A stretch of 64,000 nucleotides of DNA from an uncultured Eubacteriales bacterium (GTDB lineage Bacteria; Bacillota; Clostridia; Oscillospirales; CAG-272). Of this stretch, positions 34,370-58,407 are shown piece by piece; the stretch's first letter is position 1; every line of letters starts with the position of its first letter. The stretch covers positions 35,349 through 99,348 of the forward strand of contig CAKSDP010000003.1 in assembly GCA_934446065.1 (NCBI GenBank). Direction: 5' to 3'. The notes beneath the pieces were generated by a model. It searched no databases. It saw nothing but the letters and a program-made list of their open reading frames with translations, and had not been told where the DNA came from. A program made the position numbers and the translations under genes.

Positions 34370-35761
34370 ATGAACATACTTAAAAAATACATAGGCACGC
34401 GCGAATTCTACCTTCGCGTATTCGCACTGGCGATCCCGATAATGGTGCAGAACGGCATCACGAATTTCGTCAGTATGCTTGACAACATAATGGTCGGACG
34501 CGTCGGAACGCTCGAGATGACGGGAGTTGCCGTGGCAAACCAGCTCTTCTTCGTATTCTTCCTCTGCGTTTTCGGTACGGTATCGGGTGCGGGAATATTT
34601 GTGGCGCAGTTCCACGGAAACGGCGACACCGAGGGCATCCGCCGCACGTTCCGTTTCAAGCTGATATCAAGCTTTCTGATATCGGCGATCGGTATCGGAA
34701 TATTCCTGCTGTTCGGTCGCGATCTTATATCGATGTATCTGCGCGGCAGCGGAGAGAACAACCCCGCCGATGTTGCGGCGGCGCTCGAATTCGCATGGCA
34801 GTATCTGCTCATTATGCTCGTGGGGCTTTTGCCGTACGCGATCGTGCAGTGCTATTCGAGCACGCTGCGCGAGACCGGGCGTCCCCTGCTCCCGATGGTC
34901 GCGGGCGTCATCGCGGTCATAACGAACCTCGTGCTGAACACCGTTCTGATATTCGGCAAGCTCGGCGCTCCCCGCCTCGGCACGAACGGTGCCGCGATCG
35001 CGACGGTCATCTCCCGCTTTGTCGAGCTTCTGATCGTATCCGTTTGGACGTACATGAAGCGGCGCGACAATCCGTTCATCGTAGGTGCGCTGAAAAGCCT
35101 CCGCGTTCCGCTCTCGCTTGTGCGCGACATCACGATCAAGGGAATGCCGCTCATGCTGAACGAGACGCTGTGGTCCGCCGGCATCGCAATGCTCAGCCAG
35201 TGCTACTCCGAGCGCGGCATGGCGGTCGTTTCGGCGAACACGATCTGCCAGACCTTCTCGAATGTGTTTTCAACTGCTTTCATGGCGGTCGGCACCGCGA
35301 TCGGCATCATTCTCGGTCAGATGCTCGGAGCAGACAGAAAGGACGAGGCACGCGACTCGGCGCGAAAGCTGATCACATTCTCGGTCATGGTATCCGTTAT
35401 CGTATCGGCGCTGTTCTTTGTCGCATCGGCGTATATCCCGCTGATGTACAACACGTCCGACGAAATACGCATGACGGCTCACCGCATGATGCAGATATGC
35501 GCTGTGGCGATGCCGCTCGACGCGTTCGCGAACGCCGCGTACTTTACCCTGCGCTCCGGCGGAAAGACGCTTATAACGATCCTGTTTGACAGCTGCTTCG
35601 TCTGGGTCGTAAGCGTTCCAACAGCATACTTCCTGAGCCGGTACACTGCCGTGTCCATCTTCGTTATCTACGCGATATGCCAAGGCGAAAACTTCATAAA
35701 AGACGTGTTCGGCTTCATTCTCGTAAAGCGCGGCATTTGGGTAAAGAATATTGTAAAGTAA
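34370..35761 (+). CDS. MATE-family efflux transporter
   Basis: 463 aa, 12 TM, tandem MatE repeats (GTLEMTGVAVANQLFF...; GMPLMLNETLWSAGIAMLS). Confidence 0.85.
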   Translation: MNILKKYIGTREFYLRVFALAIPIMVQNGITNFVSMLDNIMVGRVGTLEMTGVAVANQLFFVFFLCVFGTVSGAGIFVAQFHGNGDTEGIRRTFRFKLISSFLISAIGIGIFLLFGRDLISMYLRGSGENNPADVAAALEFAWQYLLIMLVGLLPYAIVQCYSSTLRETGRPLLPMVAGVIAVITNLVLNTVLIFGKLGAPRLGTNGAAIATVISRFVELLIVSVWTYMKRRDNPFIVGALKSLRVPLSLVRDITIKGMPLMLNETLWSAGIAMLSQCYSERGMAVVSANTICQTFSNVFSTAFMAVGTAIGIILGQMLGADRKDEARDSARKLITFSVMVSVIVSALFFVASAYIPLMYNTSDEIRMTAHRMMQICAVAMPLDAFANAAYFTLRSGGKTLITILFDSCFVWVVSVPTAYFLSRYTAVSIFVIYAICQGENFIKDVFGFILVKRGIWVKNIVK

Positions 35762-35899: not shown

Positions 35900-36988
35900 A
35901 TGAGAAAAATGCTATCACTATTTCTTGCAGCGGTTATGATAATTTTGGCTGTTCCGATGACCGCAGTCACAGTCTCGGCGGAGACGGACGGGTTCTACAC
36001 TTACAGGATCGCCGACAGACAGGCGATCATAACCGGCGTGGACAGAACCATCAGCGGAAACGTAACGATCCCGGACAAGCTCGGCGGCTATCCCGTGACC
36101 GAGATAGGTGTGCGGGCATTCTACAAATGCACAAATCTCAAGAGGGTCACTGTGCCGGGCAGCGTGAAAGCGATAGGCGACTACGCGTTTATGGACTGCT
36201 CGAACCTCACGGGGCTTGTGATCCTGAAGGGAGTAACGAGCATCGGCAACAGCGCGTTCTGCAACTGCTTCGCTCTCACAAGTGTGACTCTCCCGGACAG
36301 TGTCACGATCATCTCGGATTTTGCATTTGAAGCCTGCAAAAATCTCAAAAGCATCACGCTTCCGAACAGTGTCACAACTATCGGCGAATACGCCTTCGGC
36401 TTCTGCATAAGCCTTGAGAATATAGACATTTCCGAACGTGTGACGTCTATCAGCACGGGTGCCTTTTACGACTGCGCAAAGCTCACGGACATCGCGCTCC
36501 CCGCAAGCGTCGTTGCCATCGGCAGAAATGCGTTCACGGACTCTGGGCTTGAGGATATATACTACCCCGGAAGCAGCGACAGCTGGTACGGCATTGACAT
36601 ACATAGTGAAAACACAACATTGAACAAGGCAAATGTTCACTTCAGCATTACAGACCCCTCGACGCATTACAAGTACCGCGAAAAGCAGCCGGGAATGTAT
36701 GAGGAGGGCGAACGCGGCTACTACTGCTCCTGCGGATTTACAAAGAATGTCGAAGTGCTCCCCGCACTGAGCGGAACTGCTTACAGTTACAAGGTACTTG
36801 ACGGCGAAGTTACAATCACCGGCACCACAAAACACCCTGAAAACATAGTAATTCCAAGCACTATCGACGGATATCCGGTAACGGGCATTGCGGACAGAGC
36901 ATTCAGGGGGAACCGCGAAATTAAAACCGTGACGATCCAGTCGGGCGTAAAGAGTATCGGTAAGGAAGCATTCAACGGTGTCACATAA
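35900..36988 (+). CDS. secreted leucine-rich-repeat (BspA-type LRR) surface protein, N-terminal part; terminated by in-frame TAA inside a repeat unit
   Basis: Signal peptide MRKMLSLFLAAVMIILAVPMTAVTVSA; repeated about 23-aa units ...C.NL..I.IP.SVT.IG..AF.. Confidence 0.8.
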   Translation: MRKMLSLFLAAVMIILAVPMTAVTVSAETDGFYTYRIADRQAIITGVDRTISGNVTIPDKLGGYPVTEIGVRAFYKCTNLKRVTVPGSVKAIGDYAFMDCSNLTGLVILKGVTSIGNSAFCNCFALTSVTLPDSVTIISDFAFEACKNLKSITLPNSVTTIGEYAFGFCISLENIDISERVTSISTGAFYDCAKLTDIALPASVVAIGRNAFTDSGLEDIYYPGSSDSWYGIDIHSENTTLNKANVHFSITDPSTHYKYREKQPGMYEEGERGYYCSCGFTKNVEVLPALSGTAYSYKVLDGEVTITGTTKHPENIVIPSTIDGYPVTGIADRAFRGNREIKTVTIQSGVKSIGKEAFNGVT

Positions 36989-38632
36989 ATGACGGACATT
37001 ACGATTCCCGACAGTGTTACGAGTATTGGGAATTATGCGTTCTCCGGATGCCCAAAACTTCAGAGTATGATCATTCCAAAGGGCGTAACGAGCATTTCCG
37101 ACGGTATGTTCTACAACTGTTCGGAACTTACGGACGTTACTGTCCACGATAATGTAATAAGCATTGGCGCAAAGGCATTTTACGGTTGTTCAATTCTCTC
37201 AGGCATCGCTATTCCCGACAGTGTTACGAGCATCGGCGAGAAGGCTTTCTGCTTTTGTTTACGTATTTCAAGCATCACAATACCCAAGTCGATGACAAAC
37301 ATCGGAGAATATACATTTTCCTCCTGCACCGGTCTTACGGACATTACGATCCCGAGCAACATAACAAGCATCGGTAATCATGCATTTTTAATGTGCACAA
37401 ATCTTACAAGCATCACTATTCCCGACAGCGTGACAAGCATCGGTATGTATGCATTCAAAGAATGCACAAGCCTTCAAAGCATCGTCATACCAGACAGTAT
37501 AACAAGCATTAGCCGTAATATGTTCGATGGCTGCTCAAGCCTTTCAAGCATTACTGTACCGAGCGGAATAACGGAAATCGAGGTATGTGCATTTCAAAAT
37601 TGCTCAAGTCTTGTTAGTTTCACCATACCCGATGGGTTGACAATAATCAATTCGTCTGTCTTTTCCGGATGCACAAATCTCTCAAGTGTAATCATACCCG
37701 ATAGTGTGACAGAAATTGATGGTAATGCATTCGCCGAATGTTCAAGCCTTGCAAGCATAACGATACCAAACAGCGTGACATATATTGGCTATTCCGCATT
37801 TATTGGCTGCTGCAGTCTTACAAGCATTACAATACCCTATGGCGTAACGGCGATACAAGGCAGCACCTTCGAATCCTGCACAGGTCTCGTAAACATCACC
37901 ATTCCAGACAGTGTAACGGGTATTGGTATGTCAGCGTTTTACGAATGTTCAAGCCTTGTAAGTATAACATTACCCGATAGCATAGAATATATACACCCTC
38001 AAGCATTCTACGAGTGTGCAAATCTTGCAAGCATAACGATACCCGACGGCGTTTCCACCATCTATAGCTACACATTTTCATACTGCAAAAATCTTACAAG
38101 TATCACTATTCCCAAAAGCGTAAAGTTCATCCGTATGGATGCGTTCGGAAAATGCGCAGACCTTAAAGATGTATACTATGCCGGAAGCCGCAAGGATTGG
38201 GAAAATATCGAGATAGAAGAACGCAACGAAGACTTTATTGACGCTTTCGTTCACTACAACATATCGGACCCCGAAGGTCACTACGAGCTTGTAACCACAC
38301 CTCCCACCTGCACGAAAGACGGACGTAGCATTGAGGTTTGCCCCTGCGGACATTCAAAAAATGAGCTCACAATCCCGGCGACCGGTCACAAGTACGAGAA
38401 CGGTACGTGCACGGTCTGCGGCGAAGCAAAGCCCGATGTGATACTCGGTGACGCAGGCGGCGACGGCGCGGTCAGGATCGGTGACGCGATAACGATTCTC
38501 AAGCACGTTGCGGGGTGGCAAGGAATCACAATTGACACCGACACCGCCGACGTGGATGCAAGCGGCAAGGTCGATTTGAACGACGCGATACTTGTTTTAA
38601 GGAAGATCGCCGGATGGGCTGTGGATTTCTGA
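36989..38632 (+). CDS. LRR protein C-terminal part with type-I dockerin; same frame as the upstream ORF, separated only by TAA (probable single disrupted roughly 910-aa gene)
   Basis: At least 17 more LRR units then dockerin duplicate Ca-binding segments GDAGGDGAVRIGDAITILKHVAG and DVDASGKVDLNDAILVLRKIAG; ATG 36989 immediately follows TAA 36986-36988. Confidence 0.8.
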   Translation: MTDITIPDSVTSIGNYAFSGCPKLQSMIIPKGVTSISDGMFYNCSELTDVTVHDNVISIGAKAFYGCSILSGIAIPDSVTSIGEKAFCFCLRISSITIPKSMTNIGEYTFSSCTGLTDITIPSNITSIGNHAFLMCTNLTSITIPDSVTSIGMYAFKECTSLQSIVIPDSITSISRNMFDGCSSLSSITVPSGITEIEVCAFQNCSSLVSFTIPDGLTIINSSVFSGCTNLSSVIIPDSVTEIDGNAFAECSSLASITIPNSVTYIGYSAFIGCCSLTSITIPYGVTAIQGSTFESCTGLVNITIPDSVTGIGMSAFYECSSLVSITLPDSIEYIHPQAFYECANLASITIPDGVSTIYSYTFSYCKNLTSITIPKSVKFIRMDAFGKCADLKDVYYAGSRKDWENIEIEERNEDFIDAFVHYNISDPEGHYELVTTPPTCTKDGRSIEVCPCGHSKNELTIPATGHKYENGTCTVCGEAKPDVILGDAGGDGAVRIGDAITILKHVAGWQGITIDTDTADVDASGKVDLNDAILVLRKIAGWAVDF

Positions 38633-39139: not shown

Positions 39140-40822
39140 TTATATGATCAAATATGCTCCCAGCATCTGTTTGTCATTATCCTTATCAAAGGTTAAATAA
39201 CCTTGTCTGACAGCCTCTTCCAAGACTGCGCCGCGCATAGCAAAAACATTTGCACAAGCGTGATCGATTTGGAATTCATCTTCTTTAAAAAAGTCGGGAA
39301 TTTCTTTATAGATCTGCTCGCGGCAGAACAAATAATGTCGTGTAGCAATCTCTGCTGCTTTACAACGAAGTGCCTCAAACTCTTTGCGTGCATCCGGGGG
39401 CATTTTGCGTGACTTATCCCTATACATAACCATGATAGTCGGAACATATCCCTCATCTGTGCTTTTAATATATCCGTATGTTTCCAATCTTTTTAGTATA
39501 GTCTTGTCTACATCTGAGCTATTACCATCAGCAACTGCCACCATTGCTTGACCGTCTGCATAATTAAGAAACGGAGGCGTCCTATCTTCAATTCCGCCAA
39601 ATTCAAACCTGTATTGACGGAAATAAATTTCAGGCAGATCTTTCTCATCGGGATTTGACACACAACCGCTTAGTCCGACAAAATTCGGCTTGCTGCCGAG
39701 ATAATTTTCCATGCCGAGAAGATCCCATTCTCCTCCGTCGGGACGAAGAGTATGTCCCCAAGAACCGATATTGGTAACCTCTGCCGCATTTTTATTAAAC
39801 GGTTTTAGCGTGTAGGAATTGACAGCATCCGTTTCTGTCATAAGCAGTGCCCATTTCATATCCTCAAACGACTGATACCCCTCATGCCATTTCGGACAAT
39901 TATCGTTTCGCCACTTGATATCATATTCCATGGCTTCTATTACAGCTTTTGTGAGTTCAGGGGTAATTCCGCGCAAATATGCGTAAATCTTTTCCTGCGC
40001 TTCTGCACTTACGATGAAGATATTTGTTTCGTATTGATTCCCGTTTTTCTTCATTAAGGTGGCTTGCGCAAGCGCCGATAGTTCTTCTTCCATATACGGA
40101 AGAGCTACCCCAACCTCCATTGCCAGCTCTTCTGCTGTAGAGGGGTTTCTATAAGCTGCAAGCAGAATGTTTTTGCAGAGCAAACGCGAAATATAATTCC
40201 ATGGTTCACCGCTTTTTCCTACCATTCCGTTCATAACAAACGCAATGTTTTGGGGGTTATAACTAAGCTTTCCGAATTCTCTTGCCATATCCATACCTTC
40301 TTTCAATATGATTCTTGCACGGTGAAGTCTTTGCTGAACCGTACTGATCGAAAGAGAGAGAGATGATGCAATATCACGAACGCTTTTGCTTTCTATATAA
40401 TAGGCAACGACGATATTGCGATAATCGCTTTTTATGAACGCCAACTCTCGCCGAAGCAGAGCCATTTGCTCTGTATGTATTATTTCATCAAGGATGTTTT
40501 TGCTTTCATCCTCAACCTCATAATCGCCGATATCGGAACCGGTTACCGACTCGTTTCGATTATGCTTTACAGTTGCCCATACGGAATAACGATTTCGCGC
40601 GATCTGCCATACCCACGCCGAAAAACTCGTTGGAATCGCCCCTCTGTTCAAAGCCGTTATAATCTGAAGCGCGATATCTTGCGTCAGACCTTCAGCTTCA
40701 ACATTGTTTCCTGTCTTCTTCAAGCAAAAATAAAACAACTTTTCCATATAGTTTTCAGTAAATTCATTGATAAGCTGATCGCACATTCGGTTCGTTTCTT
40801 GCATTTTCTCGCCTCCTTTCAC
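39140..40822 (-). CDS. ECF-type sigma-70 family sigma factor fused to a roughly 370-aa soluble C-terminal domain of unknown function
   Basis: Region 2 (EAEGLTQDIALQIITAL, FSAWVWQIARNRYSVW) and region 4 HTH (SVRDIASSLSLSISTVQQRLHRARIILKE) within first roughly 190 aa; remaining roughly 370 aa hydrophilic, no TM segment, no recognisable motif; 560 aa; low-GC codon usage. Confidence 0.65.
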   Translation of the reverse strand: MKGGEKMQETNRMCDQLINEFTENYMEKLFYFCLKKTGNNVEAEGLTQDIALQIITALNRGAIPTSFSAWVWQIARNRYSVWATVKHNRNESVTGSDIGDYEVEDESKNILDEIIHTEQMALLRRELAFIKSDYRNIVVAYYIESKSVRDIASSLSLSISTVQQRLHRARIILKEGMDMAREFGKLSYNPQNIAFVMNGMVGKSGEPWNYISRLLCKNILLAAYRNPSTAEELAMEVGVALPYMEEELSALAQATLMKKNGNQYETNIFIVSAEAQEKIYAYLRGITPELTKAVIEAMEYDIKWRNDNCPKWHEGYQSFEDMKWALLMTETDAVNSYTLKPFNKNAAEVTNIGSWGHTLRPDGGEWDLLGMENYLGSKPNFVGLSGCVSNPDEKDLPEIYFRQYRFEFGGIEDRTPPFLNYADGQAMVAVADGNSSDVDKTILKRLETYGYIKSTDEGYVPTIMVMYRDKSRKMPPDARKEFEALRCKAAEIATRHYLFCREQIYKEIPDFFKEDEFQIDHACANVFAMRGAVLEEAVRQGYLTFDKDNDKQMLGAYLII

Positions 40823-41028: not shown

Positions 41029-41176
41029 CTTTTCGTAACAGCATTTTTTCTATTCTTTCTCAGCAGCAGAACACGGTATACTTCTTCAGCATTTTCACCG
41101 GGTGCAGAGACGATTTTGACTGCCGCAGCCCGGGGATGCCCATGTCCTCTTCCCTGTTCACGAACTTCACGTCGGG
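41029..41176. repeat. direct repeat copy B (3' end of intact DUF2156-like gene)
   Basis: See copy A; continuous with ORF 41060-41965. Confidence 0.85.
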
Positions 41177-41965
41177 CGCGTCAAGGCTGCGCAGGTATCC
41201 GGTCGAGAGATACTGGTACGCTCCCGGCATATCCTGCATGGCTTTCTCAAAATGCACGAACACCGTATCGCCGACGATCTCCCCGACGGTAAAGCCCGCA
41301 GTCTCGCCGCCCGCAGTGAGGATCGCGCCGGACAGCCCAAGTTCATCCCAATGCTCCGCGAGGTCACATATCGCGGAAAGCTCGGCTGCCGCCATTTTCG
41401 AGCCGTCGGAATAAAGCTCGTCCCATTTTGCGACGAAATCTGCCATCATCGCGGCATTTGTGACGGTCATGGGGATTATTTCGGCGTCCGGATGCATTTT
41501 GCCGAAGCGATTTACGAAGTTTTTCTGCCCGTGGAACTTTCTGCCGGACAGCTCCGATATTTCGGTGCGGTCGTATACGTAGTCCGACCAATCCGGCTCT
41601 TCCGAGGGAAACACGACGTCGAACACCTCCCCGAACATGGGGACATTCTGCTCCGCGACGAAGCAGAAATACATATTCATACCGCGCCCGTGGGCGTATT
41701 CGCCGATCGCGGCAAGCGCTGTGCGCGGGTCCCCGCCGATCGGGAAAGAGAACATCTCCGTTCCCTCGCACGAGGCGAGAAGCACGACGGAATCGCCGCA
41801 GCGCGCCCATTTCGTATCGTAATAGCCGCGCCACAGGAATGTGGTTCCGAACAGATTATCGCAGATGAGCGGTATCCCCGCCTCCGCTCTCTCAAGATTA
41901 TCACGCTCAAAGACGGCACGAAGATATTCGATATCAGCGTATTCGAGCCTCTTAAACTCAAGCAT
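41060..41965 (-). CDS. DUF2156-like protein (MprF/LysX C-terminal-domain-like, GNAT-fold acyltransferase family), function unknown
   Basis: 301 aa; family assignment from memory of the YdaK/DUF2156 pattern (FVAEQN..., LRSLDAPDVKFVNREEDMGIPGLRQSK); moderate certainty. Confidence 0.45.
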   Translation of the reverse strand: MLEFKRLEYADIEYLRAVFERDNLERAEAGIPLICDNLFGTTFLWRGYYDTKWARCGDSVVLLASCEGTEMFSFPIGGDPRTALAAIGEYAHGRGMNMYFCFVAEQNVPMFGEVFDVVFPSEEPDWSDYVYDRTEISELSGRKFHGQKNFVNRFGKMHPDAEIIPMTVTNAAMMADFVAKWDELYSDGSKMAAAELSAICDLAEHWDELGLSGAILTAGGETAGFTVGEIVGDTVFVHFEKAMQDMPGAYQYLSTGYLRSLDAPDVKFVNREEDMGIPGLRQSKSSLHPVKMLKKYTVFCC

Positions 41966-48420: not shown

Positions 48421-48653
48421 TTTTCAAATACTCCGTTTTTCTGCAAGATCTTACAGTAGCCATATTATATCACGCAGTCACGTGATTGTCAATAGAATTC
48501 TTGCGATTTGATAAAAATATCGAATTTGCAGAAATTTTCCTTCTTTATCGCCGTACAGGATTGCAATAACAGCAGAAATGATATATAATATATAAGATAT
48601 CATCGCATTATGTATTTCTCTTTCCAAATCATCAGCACAAGGGGGAGTTCCTT

Positions 48654-49454
48654 ATGAAGGACTCAATTTTCTCCCCGGGTGAGCGTGGGGAAAAACTGAT
48701 CCGCGTAAACGACGCGGGATTTGCGAAAAATCCGGCGCCACGCCATCACGCGCGCGGTGCGGGGTTTTGCTTTCTGTATATCATGTCGGGGGAGGCGGCG
48801 ATCGAGTCTCCGAACACGCTTGTATCCGCCGGTCCCGGCAGAGTCGTGATAATACACGACTCCGAGGAATGTGTTGTCTACAAGAACAGCGGTGACTTGT
48901 CGCTCATCAGGTTCTCTGTATCCGGATTCATAACCGAAGCCGTATACGAGGTGCTCGGACTCGACCGCATAGCCGTGTTCCCTGCGGACAGGCTCATCAC
49001 ATTCACAAAGCTCGAACGTGAATATGCCGAATATCTCGCGGGCAGCGGCAAAGCCGGGCAAAGGATCTGCGAGGCGGCGTTCTCGCTCATGCTCGACTGC
49101 GCGGGCTACTCAAAAAGAGACTCCGACGCGAGGCCGATCGCCGAACGTATGCGGGAATTTCTCGATCTTTCGGTATGCGAGGACATAGACCTTGATATGC
49201 TCGGCGCACATTTCGACATCACGGGTGTTCACGCAATAAGAGTATTCAGAAAAGAATACGATATAACTCCGATGCAGTATCTTCGCGACGCGAGACTCAA
49301 CGCGGCGGCTCAGATGCTGCGCATGACGGATATTCACTCATCGGTTATAGCGGAAACGCTGCGATTCTCAAACCCGCAGCACTTTTCTAACGCCTTCAAG
49401 GAAAAGTTCGGCATCTCGCCCGGGCGGTACAGAGAATCCGTCAGAGGCAACTGA
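48654..49454 (+). CDS. AraC-family transcriptional regulator
   Basis: C-terminal tandem HTH_AraC (...LRMTDIHSSVIAETLRFSNPQHFSNAFKEKFGISPGRYR). Confidence 0.8.
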   Translation: MKDSIFSPGERGEKLIRVNDAGFAKNPAPRHHARGAGFCFLYIMSGEAAIESPNTLVSAGPGRVVIIHDSEECVVYKNSGDLSLIRFSVSGFITEAVYEVLGLDRIAVFPADRLITFTKLEREYAEYLAGSGKAGQRICEAAFSLMLDCAGYSKRDSDARPIAERMREFLDLSVCEDIDLDMLGAHFDITGVHAIRVFRKEYDITPMQYLRDARLNAAAQMLRMTDIHSSVIAETLRFSNPQHFSNAFKEKFGISPGRYRESVRGN

Positions 49455-49490: not shown

Positions 49491-51629
49491 TTGAGAAAAT
49501 TTTTATCGGATATAAAAGCTCTCGTCTCACGGGCAGGACGCGGAATATGCAAATTCCTCTCCTCCGTGATACGTTATCTCTTTGCGCATCCTACGACGGA
49601 ATGGGTGATCCTTACACTTATTCTGTATTTCATCACCGACTCACTGTGCAGGCGGTCGTTTATACAGTCCGTCGTCTTCATATTCACCTCGCCGGTGATG
49701 TTCCTGTTTAATTTTTCGATCGTCGCCATCGGCACATCGTTTGCGCTCATTTTCAGGCACAGGTATTTCTTCTACCTTCTGAATCTCGTATTCTGGCTTA
49801 CGTTGTCGATCACGGATTTCGTTCTGCTCGGGATGCGGGCAGACCCGTTTTCGGCGGTCGATCTGAACGTCATCGTAACGGCGCTCGGCATCGTTCCGAA
49901 ATACATCGGATGGGGCGGCATCATCGCAATAATCGCGGCATTCGCGGCAAGCGCGTCGCTGCTCGTTCTTCTGTGGCGGCGTCATCCGAAGATAGTTCGG
50001 CTGAACCGTTCGTCCGCCGCGCTTCGCACCGCGACGCTTGCGCTTATAATATGCGTGCTCTCGATCTCGACCTCATATTATCACTATATTCCCGACAATT
50101 TTGAAAATGCAGCGGTCGCATACGACACATACGGATTTCCGTACTGCTTCTTTCGCAGCTTTGTACAGCGCGGGGTCAGCACACCGGACGAATATTCGGA
50201 GGACGCGATCGAAGCTCTGACAAAAAAGCTCGGCGACACGGAAAACACGGCGAAGGACGTTCCGAACGTAATATTCCTTCAGCTTGAATCGTTCTTTGAC
50301 GTTAACCGCGTAAAGGGGCTGTCTCTCAGCGAAAACCCGATTCCGAACTTCACGTCGCTCAAGGAAAGCTGTGCTTCGGGAAAGCTTCGCGTAAACACGA
50401 TCGGCGGCGGAACGGCAAACACCGAGTTTGAGGTGCTGTGCGGCATGAACCTGACCCATTTCGGTCTGCTCGAATGTCCGTACACAACGATCCTGAACCG
50501 GACTCCGTGCCGCTCGGCGGCATCGGTATTCGCCGAATGCGGGCTTACGACGCACGCGATCCACAATCACATCGCGACATTCTACGACAGGTATGTCGTA
50601 TACCCGAATCTCGGGTTTGACACATTCACCCCCGTCGAATATATGAAGAACATCGAGCGCAACAGTCTCGGCTGGGTCAAGGACTCCTGCCTTGAAGACG
50701 AGATCATGAGCGCGCTGTCCTCGACCGAGGGAAACGATTTCATATTCACGGTTTCGGTTCAGCCGCACGGCAAGTACCCCGATTTCGAGACGGCGGGCGA
50801 CGATGACATTCACGTGCTCTCATACCCCGATGAAAAGATGATATTCGACATCGAATATTACGTAAACGAGATAAACGAGACCGACGCCTTTCTCGGCAGT
50901 GTGATAGACGCGCTGCGTGACTATCCGGAGGATGTTGTGGTGGTCGCATACGGCGACCATCTCCCGATCCTCGGGCTTGACGACGAGAGTATGTTCAGCG
51001 GCGATCTGTACAGCACGGAATACGTAATATGGACCAACTTTGATTCCGATTACGAGGGCGGAGACATCCAGGCGTTCCAGCTCGCGGCAAAGGTCATGAG
51101 CGGGCTCGACATTGACGGCGGCAGTATGTTCTCGATCCATCAGAAGCTCTCGGACGATCCGGACTACGACGCATACATGAAGCTGATGGAATACGATTCC
51201 CTTGAGGGGGAGCACTTTGCCACTCACGGAAAGGCTCCGGTCGCGACAGCGATGTCGTTCGGCACGGAGGAGATCCGCGTCACCGGCGCTAAAAAATACG
51301 GCGACATTCTGTTTGTCTCAGGCGAAAACTTTACCGAAAGTAGCTATGTATTCGTAAATGACAGGCGGCTTGACACGACGCTTGTAAACGACTCGCTGCT
51401 TGTGGTAAAGAAGGCAAAGCTGCACGAGGGCGACGAGATCTACACGGCTCAGCTGTGCGAGGGCGGCACACTGCTGTCGCACTCTGCCCCGTTCACTTAT
51501 TCCTCGTCGGACGAGGGGGATGTTGTGATTCCCGACGACATATTCTCAGGCAGCAAAGCGGATTCCGGCGGATACGGGGACGAGTCTGAGACATACGACA
51601 CCAACGGCGCACCGCTTACACAAAACTGA
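49491..51629 (+). CDS. LtaS-family sulfatase-fold membrane enzyme (lipoteichoic acid synthase / phosphoglycerol transferase-like) with extra C-terminal domain
   Basis: 5 N-terminal TM helices then sulfatase domain motifs NVIFLQLESF, TIGGGTANTEFEVLCG; 712 aa. Confidence 0.75.
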   Translation: MRKFLSDIKALVSRAGRGICKFLSSVIRYLFAHPTTEWVILTLILYFITDSLCRRSFIQSVVFIFTSPVMFLFNFSIVAIGTSFALIFRHRYFFYLLNLVFWLTLSITDFVLLGMRADPFSAVDLNVIVTALGIVPKYIGWGGIIAIIAAFAASASLLVLLWRRHPKIVRLNRSSAALRTATLALIICVLSISTSYYHYIPDNFENAAVAYDTYGFPYCFFRSFVQRGVSTPDEYSEDAIEALTKKLGDTENTAKDVPNVIFLQLESFFDVNRVKGLSLSENPIPNFTSLKESCASGKLRVNTIGGGTANTEFEVLCGMNLTHFGLLECPYTTILNRTPCRSAASVFAECGLTTHAIHNHIATFYDRYVVYPNLGFDTFTPVEYMKNIERNSLGWVKDSCLEDEIMSALSSTEGNDFIFTVSVQPHGKYPDFETAGDDDIHVLSYPDEKMIFDIEYYVNEINETDAFLGSVIDALRDYPEDVVVVAYGDHLPILGLDDESMFSGDLYSTEYVIWTNFDSDYEGGDIQAFQLAAKVMSGLDIDGGSMFSIHQKLSDDPDYDAYMKLMEYDSLEGEHFATHGKAPVATAMSFGTEEIRVTGAKKYGDILFVSGENFTESSYVFVNDRRLDTTLVNDSLLVVKKAKLHEGDEIYTAQLCEGGTLLSHSAPFTYSSSDEGDVVIPDDIFSGSKADSGGYGDESETYDTNGAPLTQN

Positions 51630-51658
51630 AACTCACTACCCAAAGAAAGGCTACGCAT

Positions 51659-53497
51659 ATGTGCGGATTTGTGGGATTTACCGGATATCTTCAAAACCGG
51701 AACGAAATAATAAAGAAAATGGCTGACCGCATCATCCACCGCGGTCCGAACATGGAGGGGTACTACGTCACTCCCGACGGGAAGTTTCCCGTCGCGCTCG
51801 GCTTCAGGCGTCTCAGCATCATTGACCTTGCCGACGGCGCTCAGCCGATGTTCAACGAGGATGGCACTGTCGTCTGCGTATACAACGGTGAAATATACAA
51901 CTTCATGGAGCTGCGCGACGAGCTTATCGCGCGGGGCCATGTATTCCGCACAAGGTGTGACTCCGAGGTTCTGATCCACGGGTACGAGGAATACGGTGAG
52001 ACGCTCGTCGAGCGCCTGCGCGGTATGTTTGCGTTCGTCATATACGACATGAAGGATCACACGCTGTTCGGCGCGCGCGACATATTCGGCATAAAGCCGT
52101 TCTACTACTGCCGCCGCGGCGAGGCGCTCATATTCGGCTCCGAGATCAAGAGCTTCCTCGAGCATCCGGAGTTTGCGCCCGAGGTCAATCCCGACGCGCT
52201 CCGCCCTTATCTGACGTTCCAATACTCCGCGACGGAGGAAACGTTCTTCAAGGGGACGTTCAAGTTGCCGCCCGCGTCCTGCTTTACGTTCAAGAACGGC
52301 GAGATGAAGATCCGCGAATACTTTGACTTCAACTTTGCCGAGAAGCGAGACATCTCGTTCGACGAGGCTGTGTCAATGGTTGACGACCGCATCCGCGAAT
52401 CCGTTGCCGCGCACAGGATCAGCGATGTCAAAGTCGGGTCGTTCCTCTCCGGCGGAGTCGATTCAAGCTACGTCACGGCGGCGCTTATGCCGCACGACAC
52501 CTTCTCGGTTGGCTTTGATTTTGAAAAATTCGACGAGACCGGCGAGGCACGCGAGCTGTCGCGGCTGCTCGGCGTCGAAAACTACACCCGTATGCTCACG
52601 GCGGAGGACTGCTTCTCCGCCCTCTCCGATATTCAGTATCACATGGACGAGCCGCAGTCGAACCCGTCGTCGGTTCCGCTGTATTTTCTCGCAAAGCTTG
52701 CGTCCGAGCACGTAACGGTCGTTCTCTCCGGCGAGGGTGCCGATGAGATCTACGCAGGCTACGAATGGTACGATGAAACGCCCGCGATGCGGAAGTACAA
52801 AAAAATACCGGCTCCGCTGCGCCGTGTCGCTGCCGGGGCTGCGTCGCACCTGCCTTATTTCAAGGGACACGATTTCATAATAAAGGGTAGCGGTCGCCCG
52901 GAGGATTATTTTATCGGTCAGGCGCTCGTATTCCCCGAGGGGGAGGCTGCCGACATTCTCCGTCCGAAATACCGCTCGGGCATGACGCCGCACGACATCA
53001 CCGCTCCGATCTACGAGCGTGCGAAGGGACTGTCCGAGCTTGAGCGCAAGCAGTACCTTGACCTGAAGCTGTGGCTTCCCGGGGATATTCTGCTGAAGGC
53101 AGACAAGATGAGCATGGCGCACTCGATCGAGCTGCGCGTGCCGTATCTCGACCGCGAGGTAATGCGCGAGGCGCAGACGATCCCCGCAAAGTACAAGATC
53201 ACACCGCAGAACACGAAATACGTTCTGCGCAAAGCGGCAAACCGTATTCTGCCGAACGAATGGGCGGACCGCACGAAGAAGGGCTTCCCCGTTCCGATCA
53301 GGCAGTGGTTCCGCAAGGATAAATACTACGATTTTGCAAAAGAATACTTCACCTCCGACGCGGCGGCGGAATATTTTGAGGCGGACAAGCTGCTGCGGCT
53401 GCTCGACGATCACAAGAGCGGTGCGGCGAACAATCAGCGCAAGATCTGGACCGCACTCGTATTCCTCGTATGGCACCGCAGATTCTTCGGAGAATAA
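51659..53497 (+). CDS. asnB: asparagine synthase (glutamine-hydrolysing) family protein (AsnB/AsnH-like)
   Basis: N-terminal MCGFVG Ntn-glutaminase Cys2, SGGVDSS PP-loop; 612 aa. Confidence 0.88.
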   Translation: MCGFVGFTGYLQNRNEIIKKMADRIIHRGPNMEGYYVTPDGKFPVALGFRRLSIIDLADGAQPMFNEDGTVVCVYNGEIYNFMELRDELIARGHVFRTRCDSEVLIHGYEEYGETLVERLRGMFAFVIYDMKDHTLFGARDIFGIKPFYYCRRGEALIFGSEIKSFLEHPEFAPEVNPDALRPYLTFQYSATEETFFKGTFKLPPASCFTFKNGEMKIREYFDFNFAEKRDISFDEAVSMVDDRIRESVAAHRISDVKVGSFLSGGVDSSYVTAALMPHDTFSVGFDFEKFDETGEARELSRLLGVENYTRMLTAEDCFSALSDIQYHMDEPQSNPSSVPLYFLAKLASEHVTVVLSGEGADEIYAGYEWYDETPAMRKYKKIPAPLRRVAAGAASHLPYFKGHDFIIKGSGRPEDYFIGQALVFPEGEAADILRPKYRSGMTPHDITAPIYERAKGLSELERKQYLDLKLWLPGDILLKADKMSMAHSIELRVPYLDREVMREAQTIPAKYKITPQNTKYVLRKAANRILPNEWADRTKKGFPVPIRQWFRKDKYYDFAKEYFTSDAAAEYFEADKLLRLLDDHKSGAANNQRKIWTALVFLVWHRRFFGE

Positions 53498-53529
53498 AAG
53501 TCGGACAAACAATGACGGAAAGGCATAAC

Positions 53530-54762
53530 ATGACACAGAAAATATATCCCGTGCTCATCGGCGCGGATCTCAACTGCTATAATGTTGCACGCGCATTCCA
53601 CGAGGCTTACGGCGTTACATCCAAGGCGTTCGGCAGATACGCGGTCTCGGCGACAAAGTATTCGACCATCGTCGATTTCACGGCGATCCCCGATATTGAC
53701 AGCGAAGACGTGATGATACGCACGCTGAAGGACTATGCCGCGTCCCACGCGGACGGGAGGCTCGTACTGTTCGGCTGCACAGATGATTACGCAACAATGA
53801 TCATCCGCAACAAGCAGAATCTTACGGAATACATCTGCCCGTACACCGAACCCGAGATGATCGACACGCTGTCCTGCAAGGCCGAGTTTTACGAGATGTG
53901 CGAGCGGCACGGCATTCCGTATCCGAAAACCGTTGTGCTTGAGGGTGTACCGGAGGACGGGGCGCTTGACGCCGCCGTACTCGGATTCCCATACCCGATA
54001 ATAATAAAGCCGTCGTCAAGCGTTGCTTACTGGAAGCATCCGTTTGACGGGATGAAGAAGGTCTACACCGCCGAGGCACCGGATGACGCGATGAAGATCG
54101 TCCGAGACATCTACGCTTCCGGCTACGACAACAAGATAATCGTACAGGACATGATCCCCGGCGGCGACGCGCAGATGCGAGTATTCACCGCATTTTCGGA
54201 CGCGCGCGGCAAGGTGCGTGCGATGTGTCTCGGTCACACGATGGTCGAGGAGCACACGCCGAAGGGGCTTGGCAATCACGCGGCGATCGTGACGGAGGAC
54301 ACGGCGGCGTTCCCGCTGACCGAAAAGATCCGCGCGCTGCTTGAGGAGCTGCACTACGTCGGGTTCTCGAACTTCGACATCAAATACACGGGCACCGGCA
54401 ACGATTTCCGCGTGTTTGAGATAAACCTCAGACAGGGGCGCAGCAATATGTACATGACCGCTGCCGGTCTTAATGTTGCAAAGCTTGCGGCAGAGGTGTT
54501 TCTCTCGGACGGCGACGACTGCGTGCTCTGCACAAACGAGCATTTCTGGCATCATGTGCCGAAGGCTGTTGCATACAAGTACACCGAGGACGCCGAGCTT
54601 GTCCGCAAGGCGAAGTCACTCGCGCACAGCGGCCGCGACACGTCGTCGCTGTGGTACAAGCCCGACATATGCAAAAGTCCGATGAGGTTCCTTTGCGTCT
54701 GCGAACAGCTGCGCCGCCAATTCGGCAAATTCAAGACATACTATCCGACCGGGCGCGAATAA
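53530..54762 (+). CDS. ATP-grasp superfamily ligase (candidate D-aspartate ligase, Aslfm-like); start at second Met with GAAAGG RBS
   Basis: ATP-grasp fold pattern (YPIIIKPSSSVAY, NFDIKYT...FEINLRQGRS); about 410 aa; embedded between asnB and racemase. Confidence 0.6.
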   Translation: MTQKIYPVLIGADLNCYNVARAFHEAYGVTSKAFGRYAVSATKYSTIVDFTAIPDIDSEDVMIRTLKDYAASHADGRLVLFGCTDDYATMIIRNKQNLTEYICPYTEPEMIDTLSCKAEFYEMCERHGIPYPKTVVLEGVPEDGALDAAVLGFPYPIIIKPSSSVAYWKHPFDGMKKVYTAEAPDDAMKIVRDIYASGYDNKIIVQDMIPGGDAQMRVFTAFSDARGKVRAMCLGHTMVEEHTPKGLGNHAAIVTEDTAAFPLTEKIRALLEELHYVGFSNFDIKYTGTGNDFRVFEINLRQGRSNMYMTAAGLNVAKLAAEVFLSDGDDCVLCTNEHFWHHVPKAVAYKYTEDAELVRKAKSLAHSGRDTSSLWYKPDICKSPMRFLCVCEQLRRQFGKFKTYYPTGRE

Positions 54763-54789
54763 TCCGTTACGGACATAACCGAAAAGGAC

Positions 54790-55569
54790 TTGGAACACAT
54801 GGCAAAACTGCTTGGAATTCTCGGCGGGCTGGGACCTCTGTCAAGCGCGTATCTTTACAGGCTTATAACAGAGCACACCCTTGCTGCGAGAGATCAGGAT
54901 CACATAGATATTGTAATAAACAGCCGCGCGACGACTCCCGATCGCACGGACTTCATTCTCGGGCGGTCGGATGAATCGCCCGTAGGCGCGATGGTCGAGG
55001 ACGCGCGCCGTCTCGAGGCTTACGGTGCGGACGCGATCGTCATTGCGTGCAACACGGCGCACTACTTCATTGACGCCGTGCGCGATGCGGTAAACGTTCC
55101 CGTGCCGAGCATCATCGAGGAGACTGCCTCATTCATAAAATTCGCCGGCTACAAACGCGCGGGGATACTCGCGACGGAAGGAACGATCATATCCGGCGCA
55201 TATCAGGACAAGCTGTCCCGCGTCGGCGTTGCCTACTCGGTGCCGGGCGCAAAATCGCGGAAGATCCTCATGGAGCTGATCTACGACTGCGTGAAATCGG
55301 GCAAACCCGGCGGACTTGACCGCTTTGAAGCGGTGTCGCACGAGATGGAGGACGCGGGATGCGACTGCCTCATTCTCGGCTGCACGGAGCTGTCCGTGCT
55401 TGCGGATGAGCTGTCACTCAAAGACGGCTCGCACTTCCCCGCTGTGGTTGACTCGCTCGATGTGCTTACGGCATATTCCGTAAATCTGTGCGGGAAGCAA
55501 ACCGTGGGGCTGCCGGATGCGCTTGACGCGTGGGGCAAAACGATACGATCCGGAGGTGACATGGCATGA
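54790..55569 (+). CDS. Asp/Glu/hydantoin racemase family (aspartate racemase-like)
   Basis: LGILGGLGP N-terminal motif, catalytic Cys motifs IACNTAHYF and LGCTELS; 259 aa. Confidence 0.85.
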   Translation: MEHMAKLLGILGGLGPLSSAYLYRLITEHTLAARDQDHIDIVINSRATTPDRTDFILGRSDESPVGAMVEDARRLEAYGADAIVIACNTAHYFIDAVRDAVNVPVPSIIEETASFIKFAGYKRAGILATEGTIISGAYQDKLSRVGVAYSVPGAKSRKILMELIYDCVKSGKPGGLDRFEAVSHEMEDAGCDCLILGCTELSVLADELSLKDGSHFPAVVDSLDVLTAYSVNLCGKQTVGLPDALDAWGKTIRSGGDMA

Positions 55570-57071
55570 TGTGCAAAAAAACGCTTCGCGAGATCTCGGA
55601 GCATCTTCACTCACCGATCGTCGGCGGTGAAATGCACAAGGATGACGCGATACTTCGCATAGAATACGATTCGCGGACGGTCGGCGGCGGCGACATTTTT
55701 GTCGCTCTGACCGGTCACAAGCTCGACGGTCACCGTTTTGCGCCGATGGCGTACAACGCAGGCTGTCGGGCGTTCCTGTGTGAACGCGATCCGGGGCTGC
55801 CCGAGGACGCAGCCGTAATATACGTTAAGAATACACGTGAGGTACTGCCGCATTTGTCGGCATTTTTCTATGGCTATCCGGCAGACCGTCTGAAGATCGT
55901 CGGCATCACGGGAACCAAAGGAAAGACGACCACGTCGCTTATGCTCGCGGAGATCCTTAACCGTTCGGGCAAAAACTGCGCATACATCGGCTCAAACGGA
56001 GTTGTTATCAACGGTGAGCACACCGACACGGTAAACACAACTCCCGAAAGCCGCGATCTTCACCACTTCTTCGCGAAAATGGTTGACGGCGGCGTCACGC
56101 ACGCCGTGATCGAGGTATCCTCACAAGCGCTCGCGCACAACAGGGTCGATGGGATCCCGTTTGCCGCGAGGGTCTTTATGAATCTGTCACCCGACCACAC
56201 GGGCGACGGCGAGCACAAGGACTTTGCCGAATACAAGGCTGCAAAGGCGTCGTTCTTCACCGGTGCCGGAGGCACGATAATCTACAATTCCGACGATACG
56301 GAATCACTCTCCGTCATCGCCGGTCACGCACCCGACGCACGACTGATCTCGTTCGGGCTTGACAGCTCTGCCGATTTTTATGCGACGGGCGATGAGCTGT
56401 TCCGCGACGAGACGACGCTCGGGATCGGATTTTCGTGCCACCACGGCGGGAGCACGGTCGGCGTGCGGCTCAACTCCCCCGGTTCGTTCAGTATCTACAA
56501 TGCCCTTGCGGCTATCGCCTGCGCAGACACGCTCGGAGTTTCCGCCGAGGCTGCGGCAGAGGCGCTGCGGCACACGTTTGTCAGCGGCAGATTCCAGATA
56601 GTTCCGGGGCTGCTCGGCCGCACATTCATCGTTGACTATGCTCACAACGGTGAGAGTCTGCGCCGCGCGCTTACGGCGCTGCGTGAGTTCTCGCCGAAAA
56701 GGCTCACGGTCGTTTTCGGCTCGGTCGGCGGCAGGACCGAGCTCCGTCGGCGCGAGCTTGCCGAAGCTGCGTCCGCCCTCGCCGATATGTCGGTGATCAC
56801 GTCAGACAACCCCGACTCCGAGGATCCCGCACACGTCTGCGCCGACATTGAGTCCTACATGGACAAAAACCATCCTTACGTAACTATTGTTGACCGCGAA
56901 AAAGCGGTGCGCTTTGCCGTGCGCAACTCGTCCCCCGGCGATATCGTACTGTTCGCCGGAAAGGGACACGAAACATATCAGCTCGTCAACGGACAAAAGC
57001 TGCCGTTCATCGAATCCGCCATCATCCGCGACGAATGCATGAAATTGAAAGCAGAGGAACAACATGACTGA
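55566..57071 (+). CDS. murE: UDP-MurNAc-L-Ala-D-Glu:diamino-acid ligase MurE (non-DAP type)
   Basis: MurE N-terminal DSR motif (EYDSRTVGGGDIFVAL), P-loop GITGTKGKTTT, Mur ligase C-domain; specificity motif reads DNPD (56805-56816) rather than DNPR. Confidence 0.85.
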   Translation: MMCKKTLREISEHLHSPIVGGEMHKDDAILRIEYDSRTVGGGDIFVALTGHKLDGHRFAPMAYNAGCRAFLCERDPGLPEDAAVIYVKNTREVLPHLSAFFYGYPADRLKIVGITGTKGKTTTSLMLAEILNRSGKNCAYIGSNGVVINGEHTDTVNTTPESRDLHHFFAKMVDGGVTHAVIEVSSQALAHNRVDGIPFAARVFMNLSPDHTGDGEHKDFAEYKAAKASFFTGAGGTIIYNSDDTESLSVIAGHAPDARLISFGLDSSADFYATGDELFRDETTLGIGFSCHHGGSTVGVRLNSPGSFSIYNALAAIACADTLGVSAEAAAEALRHTFVSGRFQIVPGLLGRTFIVDYAHNGESLRRALTALREFSPKRLTVVFGSVGGRTELRRRELAEAASALADMSVITSDNPDSEDPAHVCADIESYMDKNHPYVTIVDREKAVRFAVRNSSPGDIVLFAGKGHETYQLVNGQKLPFIESAIIRDECMKLKAEEQHD

Positions 57072-58407
57072 CTCCAAGCCCCAGCTATTTACATCAAAAC
57101 AACTCCGTGTGCTTATTTTCCCGCTGATCGCGGAATGCTTCCTTTCATGCTCGCTTGGCATTGCAGACACAATGATGATCTCCTCGATAGGAGAGGCCGC
57201 AATGTCGGGCGTTGCGCTTGTCGATATGCTGAACGTGCTGATAATCAACTTCTTCGGCGGACTTGCCACCGGAGGTGCGGTGATCGCGGCACAGTTCATC
57301 GGCAAAAAAAACAGCCGACGCGCGTCCGACTGCGCAACCGAGATAATCATGCTCTCGCTTTTCGTCGGTGTTCTCATCGGCGGTGTAATGCTCCTTCTCA
57401 GGCGGCAGGTCATGGGCCTTTTCTTCGGTTCGATCGAAGCGGACGTAATGGCTGCCGGTGTGAGATATCTTTCGTACAGCGCGTGCTCATACCCGTTCAT
57501 CGCGATCTATTCGGCGTCATCTGCGCTGTTCCGCGCGATGGGCAACTCGAAAATATCAATGTTCTCCTCCCTCATGATGAACATAATGAACATCTTCGGA
57601 AACGCGACGCTCATATTCGGGTTTGGTCTCGGCATTGACGGAGCCGCAATTGCGACGATGATCTCGCGCTTCGCGGCGATGCTTTTCCTGCTTATCCGCA
57701 TCTCAATGAAGTCGGAAACGATCCATGCGAACTTTCGTCACTACCGCCCGAACCCCGGCATTATAAAGAAGATACTGTACATCGGGATCCCGTCAAGCTT
57801 TGAGAACAGCATATTCCAGCTCGGACGCGTAGTCGTGGTCAGCATCATTTCCCTGTTCGGCACGACGCAGATCGCCGCAAACTCGGTCGCGGGAAATCTT
57901 GACGGCTTCGGCTGTATTCCCGGGCAGGCGCTTCAGCTTGCGATGATAACCGTCATCGGTCAGTGCATCGGAGCCGGAGACGACAAACAGACAATGTATT
58001 ACGCGCGAAAACTCATGAAGATCGCGATGATCGCCGGGGCGGCGATAAACGCCGCGGTCATGATATCCATGCCGCTCGTGCTGAAGCTCTACACGCTCTC
58101 CGACGAGGCACGCGAGCTTACCGTAATACTTGTAATAATCAACTGCATCAGCGCGAGCATTCTTTGGCCGTCAGCATTCGTTCTGCCGAACGCGCTGAAG
58201 GCGGCGGGAGACGTGAAGTTCACGATGGTCGTATCGATCGTATCAATGATCACGCTCCGCGTAATGTTCAGCTATGTTCTCGGCGTGATCTTCGGTCTCG
58301 GCGCGATCGGCGTTTGGATATCGATGGTGCTTGACTGGGTTCTGAGAGCATCGTGCTTTATCGCGAGATTCCGCTCACGCAAGTGGCTGCACGGCAGCAT
58401 GGTGTGA
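57064..58407 (+). CDS. MATE-family (MOP superfamily) transporter
   Basis: 447 aa, 12 TM, MatE repeats; start overlaps murE stop. Confidence 0.85.
   Translation: MTDSKPQLFTSKQLRVLIFPLIAECFLSCSLGIADTMMISSIGEAAMSGVALVDMLNVLIINFFGGLATGGAVIAAQFIGKKNSRRASDCATEIIMLSLFVGVLIGGVMLLLRRQVMGLFFGSIEADVMAAGVRYLSYSACSYPFIAIYSASSALFRAMGNSKISMFSSLMMNIMNIFGNATLIFGFGLGIDGAAIATMISRFAAMLFLLIRISMKSETIHANFRHYRPNPGIIKKILYIGIPSSFENSIFQLGRVVVVSIISLFGTTQIAANSVAGNLDGFGCIPGQALQLAMITVIGQCIGAGDDKQTMYYARKLMKIAMIAGAAINAAVMISMPLVLKLYTLSDEARELTVILVIINCISASILWPSAFVLPNALKAAGDVKFTMVVSIVSMITLRVMFSYVLGVIFGLGAIGVWISMVLDWVLRASCFIARFRSRKWLHGSMV

Follow-up and report, generated by a model that had tools for sequence, protein, structure and literature searches.

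A conserved four-gene cassette predicted to build a D-Asx-branched, non-diaminopimelate peptidoglycan precursor in uncultured Clostridia

Introduction

Which cell wall chemistry is encoded where a gene for the stem-peptide ligase MurE lies beside genes for an aspartate racemase, an ATP-grasp ligase and an asparagine synthase-like amidotransferase? This arrangement occurs on contig CAKSDP010000003.1 of an uncultured Oscillospirales-like member of the Clostridia, within the 64-kb stretch of DNA analyzed here (hereafter the window). In the known pathway for D-aspartate bridges, D-Asp is formed by RacD and joined by AslA or Aslfm, by way of a beta-aspartyl phosphate, to the lysine at position 3 of the stem peptide, and AsnH amidates the product (PMC4155827). 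A first-pass annotation of the window had read six adjacent genes, encoding LtaS-like, AsnB, ATP-grasp, aspartate racemase, MurE and MATE proteins, as a single module for an L-Lys-D-Asp or D-isoAsn cross-bridge. We find that the core of this run, at 51659-57071, can be read as a four-gene cassette for a peptidoglycan precursor that carries a D-Asx (Asp or Asn) branch and lacks diaminopimelate (DAP), with a probability of about 0.68. Such a branch would most likely be attached to a non-DAP residue at stem-peptide position 3, either Lys, giving an A4alpha wall, or Orn, giving an A4beta wall.

The wall chemistry of the bacteria concerned is sparsely documented: in a 2024 review, most genera of the Ruminococcaceae and Oscillospiraceae are entered as being of unknown peptidoglycan type, and the A4alpha class is placed at about the same abundance as the DAP-type A1gamma class (PMC11382707). 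Lys-type muropeptides bearing Asp or Asn were included in a targeted analysis of mouse gut sacculi (PMC9942837), and our literature search found no description of this cassette in Clostridia.

A four-gene core conserved across genomes

A profile built from a 10-sequence alignment of the ATP-grasp protein was run against bacterial and archaeal genomes represented by one genome per species, in which it matched at least 593 stretches of the family. Locus counts refer to the best 80 of these species-level loci (L001-L080) together with the window (n = 81), and conservation was measured both by mapping the window proteins onto the loci and by unsupervised clustering of all open reading frames (ORFs). 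Exactly four families recurred, with no other real gene family present in more than 10 loci. The ATP-grasp protein was found in 81/81 loci and was accompanied by MurE in 72, by the racemase in 65 and by AsnB in 60, and several of the missing partners correspond to contig ends. The usual order, AsnB, ATP-grasp, racemase and MurE, was nearly invariable, and the four-gene synteny seen in most of the 80 other genomes is far beyond chance. Pairwise distances among ATP-grasp proteins were also strongly correlated with those among MurE proteins (Mantel r = 0.85, a value reached by 0 of 999 permutations). Because four families recur and the ATP-grasp and MurE distances correlate, we take the functional unit to be the four-gene core rather than the six genes first proposed, and within that core the synteny supports the view that the four genes act as one conserved cassette.

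We rejected the two outer genes as module members on the basis of conservation and family scores. The LtaS-like gene adjoins the cassette only in the nearest relative, L001, where the proteins share 56% identity, and its product matches Pfam Sulfatase with 100 bits while scoring 27.6 against the cutoff of 970 for the LtaS equivalog NF053595. No MATE homologue lies beside the cassette in any of the 80 loci, and a second MATE is encoded elsewhere in the window. A further locus (L088) does hold a 44% identical MATE homologue, located about 3.5 kb from the cassette genes and on the opposite strand.

Carriers are mostly metagenome-assembled genomes (MAGs) of gut and rumen Clostridia, including Oscillospiraceae, Acutalibacteraceae, Avispirillum, Gemmiger and Subdoligranulum, with further carriers in Terrisporobacter, Intestinibacter, Romboutsia, Peptostreptococcus, Wansuia and Slackia. 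As the nearest of the 80 loci is only 75% identical, the species of the window has no close representative in the genome collection. Peptostreptococcus, in which the cassette was found in one MAG (Peptostreptococcus sp.), has walls of the Lys-D-Asp type by the accounts of Schleifer and Kandler and of Bergey's. As to wall type, our literature search gave no usable record for Terrisporobacter, Romboutsia or Peptostreptococcus. Transfer between phyla was considered for a locus labelled 'Varibaculum timonense' (L074, MGYG-HGUT-02421), which has the same gene order as that of Wansuia hejianensis (L077) and encodes an ATP-grasp protein 80% identical and a MurE 68% identical to its counterparts there. 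We rejected this explanation, since the 'Varibaculum' locus has a guanine-cytosine (GC) content of 33.5% and the record is probably a mislabelled Firmicute.

Catalytic signatures of the core enzymes

Pfam and NCBIfam scans of the six proteins bore out the enzyme classes initially named, and catalytic residues are intact in all four core enzymes. The ATP-grasp protein has no Pfam match and only weak CPSase-like matches in the two collections, and its fold is supported by an AlphaFold2 model (predicted local distance difference test score 90.7) and by Foldseek, whose best PDB matches are all ATP-grasp enzymes (biotin carboxylase, PurK, L-amino-acid ligases and PylC; E ~1e-16). We found no solved structure for the family, which is large (3765 matches; 343 clusters at 50% identity below 1e-30). 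Residues K117, K160, N299 and R301 are invariant across it and E297 nearly so, such that the E297-x-N299-x-R301 motif is conserved, reading FEINLR at residues 296-301 in the window protein.

Searches of a plasmid collection with tblastn, in which the relevant records are chromosome-like, returned homologues of the ATP-grasp protein in L. crispatus (34% identity, E 6e-87), L. curvatus (32%, E 4e-80, full length) and L. fermentum (30%, E 3e-71), with alignments spanning 96-100% of length. The L. crispatus gene lies directly after asnB, and the L. curvatus gene follows an amino-acid racemase gene downstream of aspS; the RacD/AslA/AsnH pathway of L. curvatus, including its racD-aslA pair, has been described (PMC13631041). 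Several family members are also named 'D-aspartate ligase' by the Joint Genome Institute (JGI). The full-length similarity at 30-34% identity places the window protein in one family with the aslA-type ligases found in lactobacilli that have D-Asp bridges, in agreement with the first-pass annotation. Only lactobacillus homologues were obtained as reference points: Aslfm of E. faecium and AslA of L. lactis were not among the top 120 profile matches seeded with the lactobacillus ligases, nor among the plasmid-collection tblastn matches, and cluster-name look-ups on representatives likewise did not return them. By homology, the ATP-grasp enzyme would ligate D-Asp to the side-chain amine of residue 3.

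One L. crispatus record deserves separate mention. 'Plasmid p1' of strain Lc116 (L081, 96 kb) carries the asnB-asl pair together with nrdDG, with transposase genes close by in the upstream direction; either part of the chromosome has been misassigned or wall-synthesis genes are here carried by a plasmid.

The racemase scores 207.7 bits against the TIGR00035 cutoff of 93.1, contains both catalytic Cys motifs (CNTAH at residue 87 and GCTE at residue 197) and shares 36% identity with the racemase encoded ahead of aslA in L. curvatus. It falls just below the cutoff of a cysteate racemase model (184.6 vs. 190), and glutamate-racemase models score it weakly, at about 44-50 bits. AsnB scores 528 bits against the cutoff of 267 for glutamine-hydrolysing asparagine synthase (TIGR01536), with a Cys2 nucleophile (MCGF) and an SGGVDS PP-loop at residue 264. 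Full-length identity is 44% to the AsnB of L. crispatus whose gene directly precedes the asl homologue, and the predicted role of the window AsnB is the conversion of D-Asp to D-isoAsn on the precursor.

The cassette MurE has three Mur-ligase domains, the P-loop GITGTKGKT and the GKGHE motif, and differs from DAP ligases at the site that reads substrate. In DNPR, the Asn and Arg bind the distal carboxylate of meso-DAP, while the Lys-adding MurE of S. aureus carries DNPA and owes its selectivity for Lys to an acidic pocket, part of which is the GKGHE Glu that contacts the Lys epsilon-amine (PMC3829189). The window protein has DNPD at residues 414-417, aligned with DNPR of MurE from E. coli and from M. 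tuberculosis such that Arg is replaced by Asp, and it retains the GKGHE Glu. Among cassette-linked MurEs (n = 67) the motif is DNPD in 51, DNPG in 6, DNPN, DNPA and DDPG in 2 each and another sequence in 3, and the motif-final Arg occurs in 0 of the 67. These proteins also share a GS-xGGR signature and a two-residue insertion after NLSPDH, unlike the DNPR enzymes. We infer that the cassette MurE adds L-Lys, most likely, or possibly L-Orn; the MurE of Deinococcus radiophilus, included as an Orn-type calibrator, proved too divergent in the motif region to serve this purpose.

Better scores against DAP-type models, failure to reach the PRK14022 cutoff of the staphylococcal type and the signatures peculiar to the group suggest an independent departure from DAP-type ancestors, such that the cassette MurEs look like a separate offshoot. 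Since DAP-type models score higher, annotation pipelines would call these enzymes DAP ligases, and the whole cassette-linked clade is likely to be automatically named '2,6-diaminopimelate ligase', a probable case of systematic mis-naming.

Proposed pathway

We propose a pathway in which every substrate is predicted from enzyme family and motif. The racemase would convert L-Asp to D-Asp, while the DNPD-type MurE would extend UDP-MurNAc-L-Ala-D-Glu by a cationic diamino acid that has no distal carboxylate, after which MurF, encoded elsewhere, would complete the pentapeptide. The ATP-grasp ligase would then turn the beta-carboxyl group of D-Asp into an activated acyl phosphate and join it to the side-chain amine of residue 3, and the AsnB-type enzyme would amidate the free alpha-carboxyl with glutamine to give D-isoAsn. 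Following export, transpeptidases would take the amine of the D-Asx residue as the cross-link acceptor, which would yield an A4alpha or A4beta wall.

Evidence against this reading and alternative explanations

Several observations weigh against a dedicated non-DAP pathway. The cassette MurE passes the DAP-ligase equivalog NF001126 (417 vs. a cutoff of 373) and falls below the Lys-ligase equivalog NF010628 of the PRK14022 type (322.3 vs. 536), and searches of the PDB gave bit scores of 243-234 for DAP-type MurEs vs. 216 for that of S. aureus. To our knowledge, no MurE with a DNPD motif has been characterized. The link to the Asl family runs through lactobacillus homologues and automated 'D-aspartate ligase' names, and its clostridial members seem to be known from genes alone. 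As noted in the first-pass annotation, the MurE lies outside any division and cell wall (dcw) cluster, with no dcw gene within the window; protein scans also found no second murE there, and the genome to which the window belongs may hold one.

Pairing of the ligase with a DNPR-type MurE is seen in two cases. Two records, OY725879.1 (L088) and OY725839.1 (L089), are entered in PLSDB under the name 'Subdoligranulum variabile TSDC17.2-1.1' as 'plasmids' 45 and 5. Genes of the core chromosome are found on them (a dcw cluster, metG and tatD), and both are evidently contigs of chromosomal origin. One of the two carries the ATP-grasp, racemase and AsnB genes and no MurE, and the other a dcw run of penicillin-binding protein (PBP), MurE, MurF, MraY, FtsW and MurG genes in which MurE has DNPR. 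Their GC content of 61.5-63% and closest MurE relatives, which are named Ruthenibacterium, are those of a bin that is probably Ruthenibacterium-like. In a Romboutsia sp. MAG (L062, 6013-12948), a DNPR MurE lies just upstream of the cassette, the order being an AraC gene on the minus strand, this MurE, a sodium:dicarboxylate (SDF) symporter, ATP-grasp, racemase and another MurE that is truncated where the contig ends. These two cases indicate that presence of a ligase of this family need not mean a non-DAP wall. Other dcw-type MurE matches were traced to bulk metagenome assemblies, not to those MAGs whose accession prefix is also found among cassette loci.

The same observations raise the question of whether the cassette is accessory. 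A housekeeping DAP-type murE would then sit in a dcw cluster, and the cassette would supply a second stem-peptide type or a conditional one, for example under the AraC regulator; in lineages without a cassette MurE, the Asl-like ligase would instead decorate meso-DAP and give an A4gamma wall. We consider this explanation unlikely. In its favour, the ligase trio and the DNPR dcw MurE occur in one assembly (L088 and L089), both MurE types surround the ligase cluster in L062, the window and L001 alike have an AraC gene at the start of the run, and the meso-DAP type is listed for Faecalibacterium, which is related to the cassette carriers Gemmiger and Subdoligranulum (PMC11382707). The two OY7258xx contigs, however, may stem from different organisms, given an assembly with at least 45 so-called plasmids in which the closest MurE relatives are Ruthenibacterium; adjacency of the AraC gene is not conserved across loci; and the cassette lies in a core chromosomal neighborhood with native GC content. 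Location outside the dcw cluster also counts against an accessory role, because murE lies outside it in classical Lys-type Firmicutes too. A bolder extension, which we hold to be rather improbable, is that the cassette is a self-contained, portable module for wall chemotype, with a new subfamily of DNPD MurE that is DAP-derived and separate from the Lys-MurE of Staphylococcus and Streptococcus, and that in some gut Clostridia it may coexist with a DAP-type MurE in dcw. Such cells could then produce both kinds of stem peptide or change from one to the other, for instance under the AraC regulator, and the NOD1 and NOD2 ligands released by these abundant gut bacteria would change.

It is very unlikely that the cassette MurE is an ordinary DAP ligase, with AsnB acting as a meso-DAP amidotransferase of the AsnB1/LtsA kind and the ATP-grasp and racemase genes serving another purpose. 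This would fit the NF001126 score and the precedent of L. plantarum, where asnB1 co-localizes with murE and amidates meso-DAP (PMC4155827), but the DNPR Arg is gone from every cassette MurE, AsnB adjoins the ATP-grasp gene rather than MurE, as in L. crispatus with its Lys-D-Asp wall, and all four genes co-vary as a unit. An equally slim chance attaches to the same pathway with different chemistry, in which the bridge would be D-Glu, D-isoGln or another D-dicarboxylic residue, or in which free N-epsilon-(D-aspartyl)-lysine would be installed by MurE. The Asp/Glu racemase superfamily is broad, as the near-cutoff score against the cysteate racemase model illustrates, and Asl has no known specificity determinants or solved structure; the weak glutamate-racemase scores argue against D-Glu, characterized Asl enzymes use D-Asp and act on UDP-MurNAc-pentapeptide (PMC4155827, PMC13631041), and Asx-bridged Lys muropeptides were among the targets of the mouse gut sacculus analysis (PMC9942837). 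Finally, a secondary-metabolite or small-peptide pathway, with a D-Asp-containing product exported by the MATE pump, would accord with the generic name 'carboxylate--amine ligase' that NCBI gives to family members and with the overlap of the MATE gene and the murE stop codon. We regard it as far-fetched, since the most conserved partner of the ligase is a full-length MurE with its UDP-binding domain, the MATE gene is not conserved with the cassette, and no other biosynthetic genes lie nearby in the window. Precursor synthesis for a D-Asx-branched, non-DAP wall is the reading that we prefer, and under it the presence of the cassette offers a simple way to predict from a genome that the wall is Asx-bridged and of a non-DAP type. 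The muropeptides that a bacterium sheds depend on its wall chemotype, and DAP-type fragments are NOD1 agonists, which makes the distinction relevant to host signalling. As the chemistry is already established in lactic acid bacteria, the gain lies in prediction and annotation, not in a new mechanism.

Gene organization and genomic context

The six co-directional genes of the run and the regulator at its head are given in Table 1. Intergenic gaps measure 29, 32 and 27 nt and overlaps 4 and 8 nt, and the ORF list reproduces exactly the junctions on which the first-pass annotation had based a single transcript (53497/53530, 54762/54790, 55569/55566 and 57071/57064). The run comprises seven genes if the AraC regulator is counted, and a promoter-like site was found upstream of that gene at 48561-48589. 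A scan for terminator-like sites found none in the short gaps between the six genes, with plus-strand matches in the region falling within coding sequence, and the starts of AsnB, ATP-grasp, MurE and MATE each have a Shine-Dalgarno-like sequence ahead of them. For the ATP-grasp gene, whose ORF opens at 53470, homologue lengths favour a start at 53530, which independent gene calls share; gene callers also place the start of the LtaS-like gene at 49605 and that of the racemase at the ATG at 54799, inside its ORF.

Table 1 Genes of the co-directional run, with coordinates in the window.
Feature	Coordinates	Strand	Basis of assignment
AraC-family regulator, heads the same-strand run	48654-49454	+	Pfam HTH_18/HTH_AraC
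Membrane-anchored sulfatase-superfamily (LtaS-like) protein	49491-51629	+	Pfam Sulfatase
Glutamine-dependent AsnB/AsnH-type amidotransferase	51659-53497	+	TIGR01536
ATP-grasp carboxylate-amine ligase, D-aspartate ligase (Asl/AslA) family	53530-54762	+	Homology, fold, motif
Pyridoxal phosphate-independent aspartate racemase (RacD-like)	54790-55569, probable start ATG 54799	+	TIGR00035
MurE paralogue or subfamily, DNPD for DNPR	55566-57071	+	Three Mur-ligase domains
MATE-family efflux transporter, overlaps the murE stop by 8 nt	57064-58407	+	TIGR00797

The identical seven-gene arrangement was found on 14 independent metagenome contigs from different samples, and the GC content and third-position GC content (GC3) of the six genes resemble those of the rest of the window. 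An AraC homologue upstream of the cassette occurs only in L001 among the 80 loci, and we treat this gene as context and as a possible regulator outside the conserved core. The LtaS-like, MATE and AraC genes are probably co-transcribed neighbors in this lineage that lie outside the pathway, and the association of the LtaS-like gene with the cassette appears to be lineage-specific. The MATE protein is of the MATE efflux type and not MurJ, with 207.8 bits against the TIGR00797 cutoff of 147.4, compared to 28.1 vs. 27.4 for the MurJ model of Pfam and 18.9 vs. a cutoff of 235.6 for TIGR01695. Other transporters of the wider family are encoded in the window, namely a second MATE transporter at 34370-35761 (plus strand) and a SpoVB/MurJ-like protein of the MOP superfamily at 18139-19773 (minus strand), adjoining mazG; MOP-family transporters are therefore multi-copy in the region.

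Outside the run, the window is unremarkable core chromosome that includes dnaE, whiA, murB, tyrS, recN, xseA, relA, recJ, cdaA, spo0A and recD2, and scans of the 64 kb with Rfam and for tRNAs gave no match. A stretch at about 36-42 kb is lower in GC (0.46-0.48 vs. a window mean of 0.545) and includes two adjacent BspA-type leucine-rich-repeat proteins at 35900-38632, which may mark an acquired island of surface proteins. A 560-aa protein at 39140-40822 (minus strand) combines N-terminal sigma-70 regions 2 and 4 with a long C-terminal extension that has no family match. Adjoining spo0A, 7.5 kb upstream of the cassette, is a gene for a stand-alone LPG_synthase_C protein (DUF2156, similar to the MprF C-terminus; 301 aa, 41060-41965, minus strand), a candidate aminoacyl-tRNA-dependent transferase.

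Comparison with known systems

The closest counterpart of the cassette is the RacD-AslA(Aslfm)-AsnH system of L. lactis, E. faecium and most lactobacilli, which comprises the same three enzyme classes. Adjacency of racemase and ligase genes is as in L. curvatus and that of asnB and ligase genes as in L. crispatus, and the beta-aspartyl phosphate mechanism is presumably alike. The systems differ in that the window and most of the 80 Clostridia genomes join the three genes with murE in one cassette, and in that the host is an uncultured Oscillospirales-like member of the Clostridia whose enzymes have low identity to those of lactic acid bacteria.

Compared to the Lys-MurE of S. aureus (PDB 4C12 and 4C13; PRK14022 type), the window MurE has the same three-domain architecture and the Glu of GKGHE, and the Arg of DNPR is absent from both, replaced in DNPA of S. 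aureus and DNPD of the window. The window enzyme nevertheless falls below the PRK14022 cutoff, is closer to DAP-type models and has its own GS-xGGR signature and insertion. The AsnB of the window belongs to the same murE-linked family of glutamine amidotransferases as AsnB1 of L. plantarum, AsnB of B. subtilis and LtsA of Corynebacterium. Those enzymes amidate meso-DAP in DAP-type walls, whereas the window AsnB is linked to a MurE without the DAP motif and its gene lies beside those of an Asl-type ligase and an aspartate racemase.

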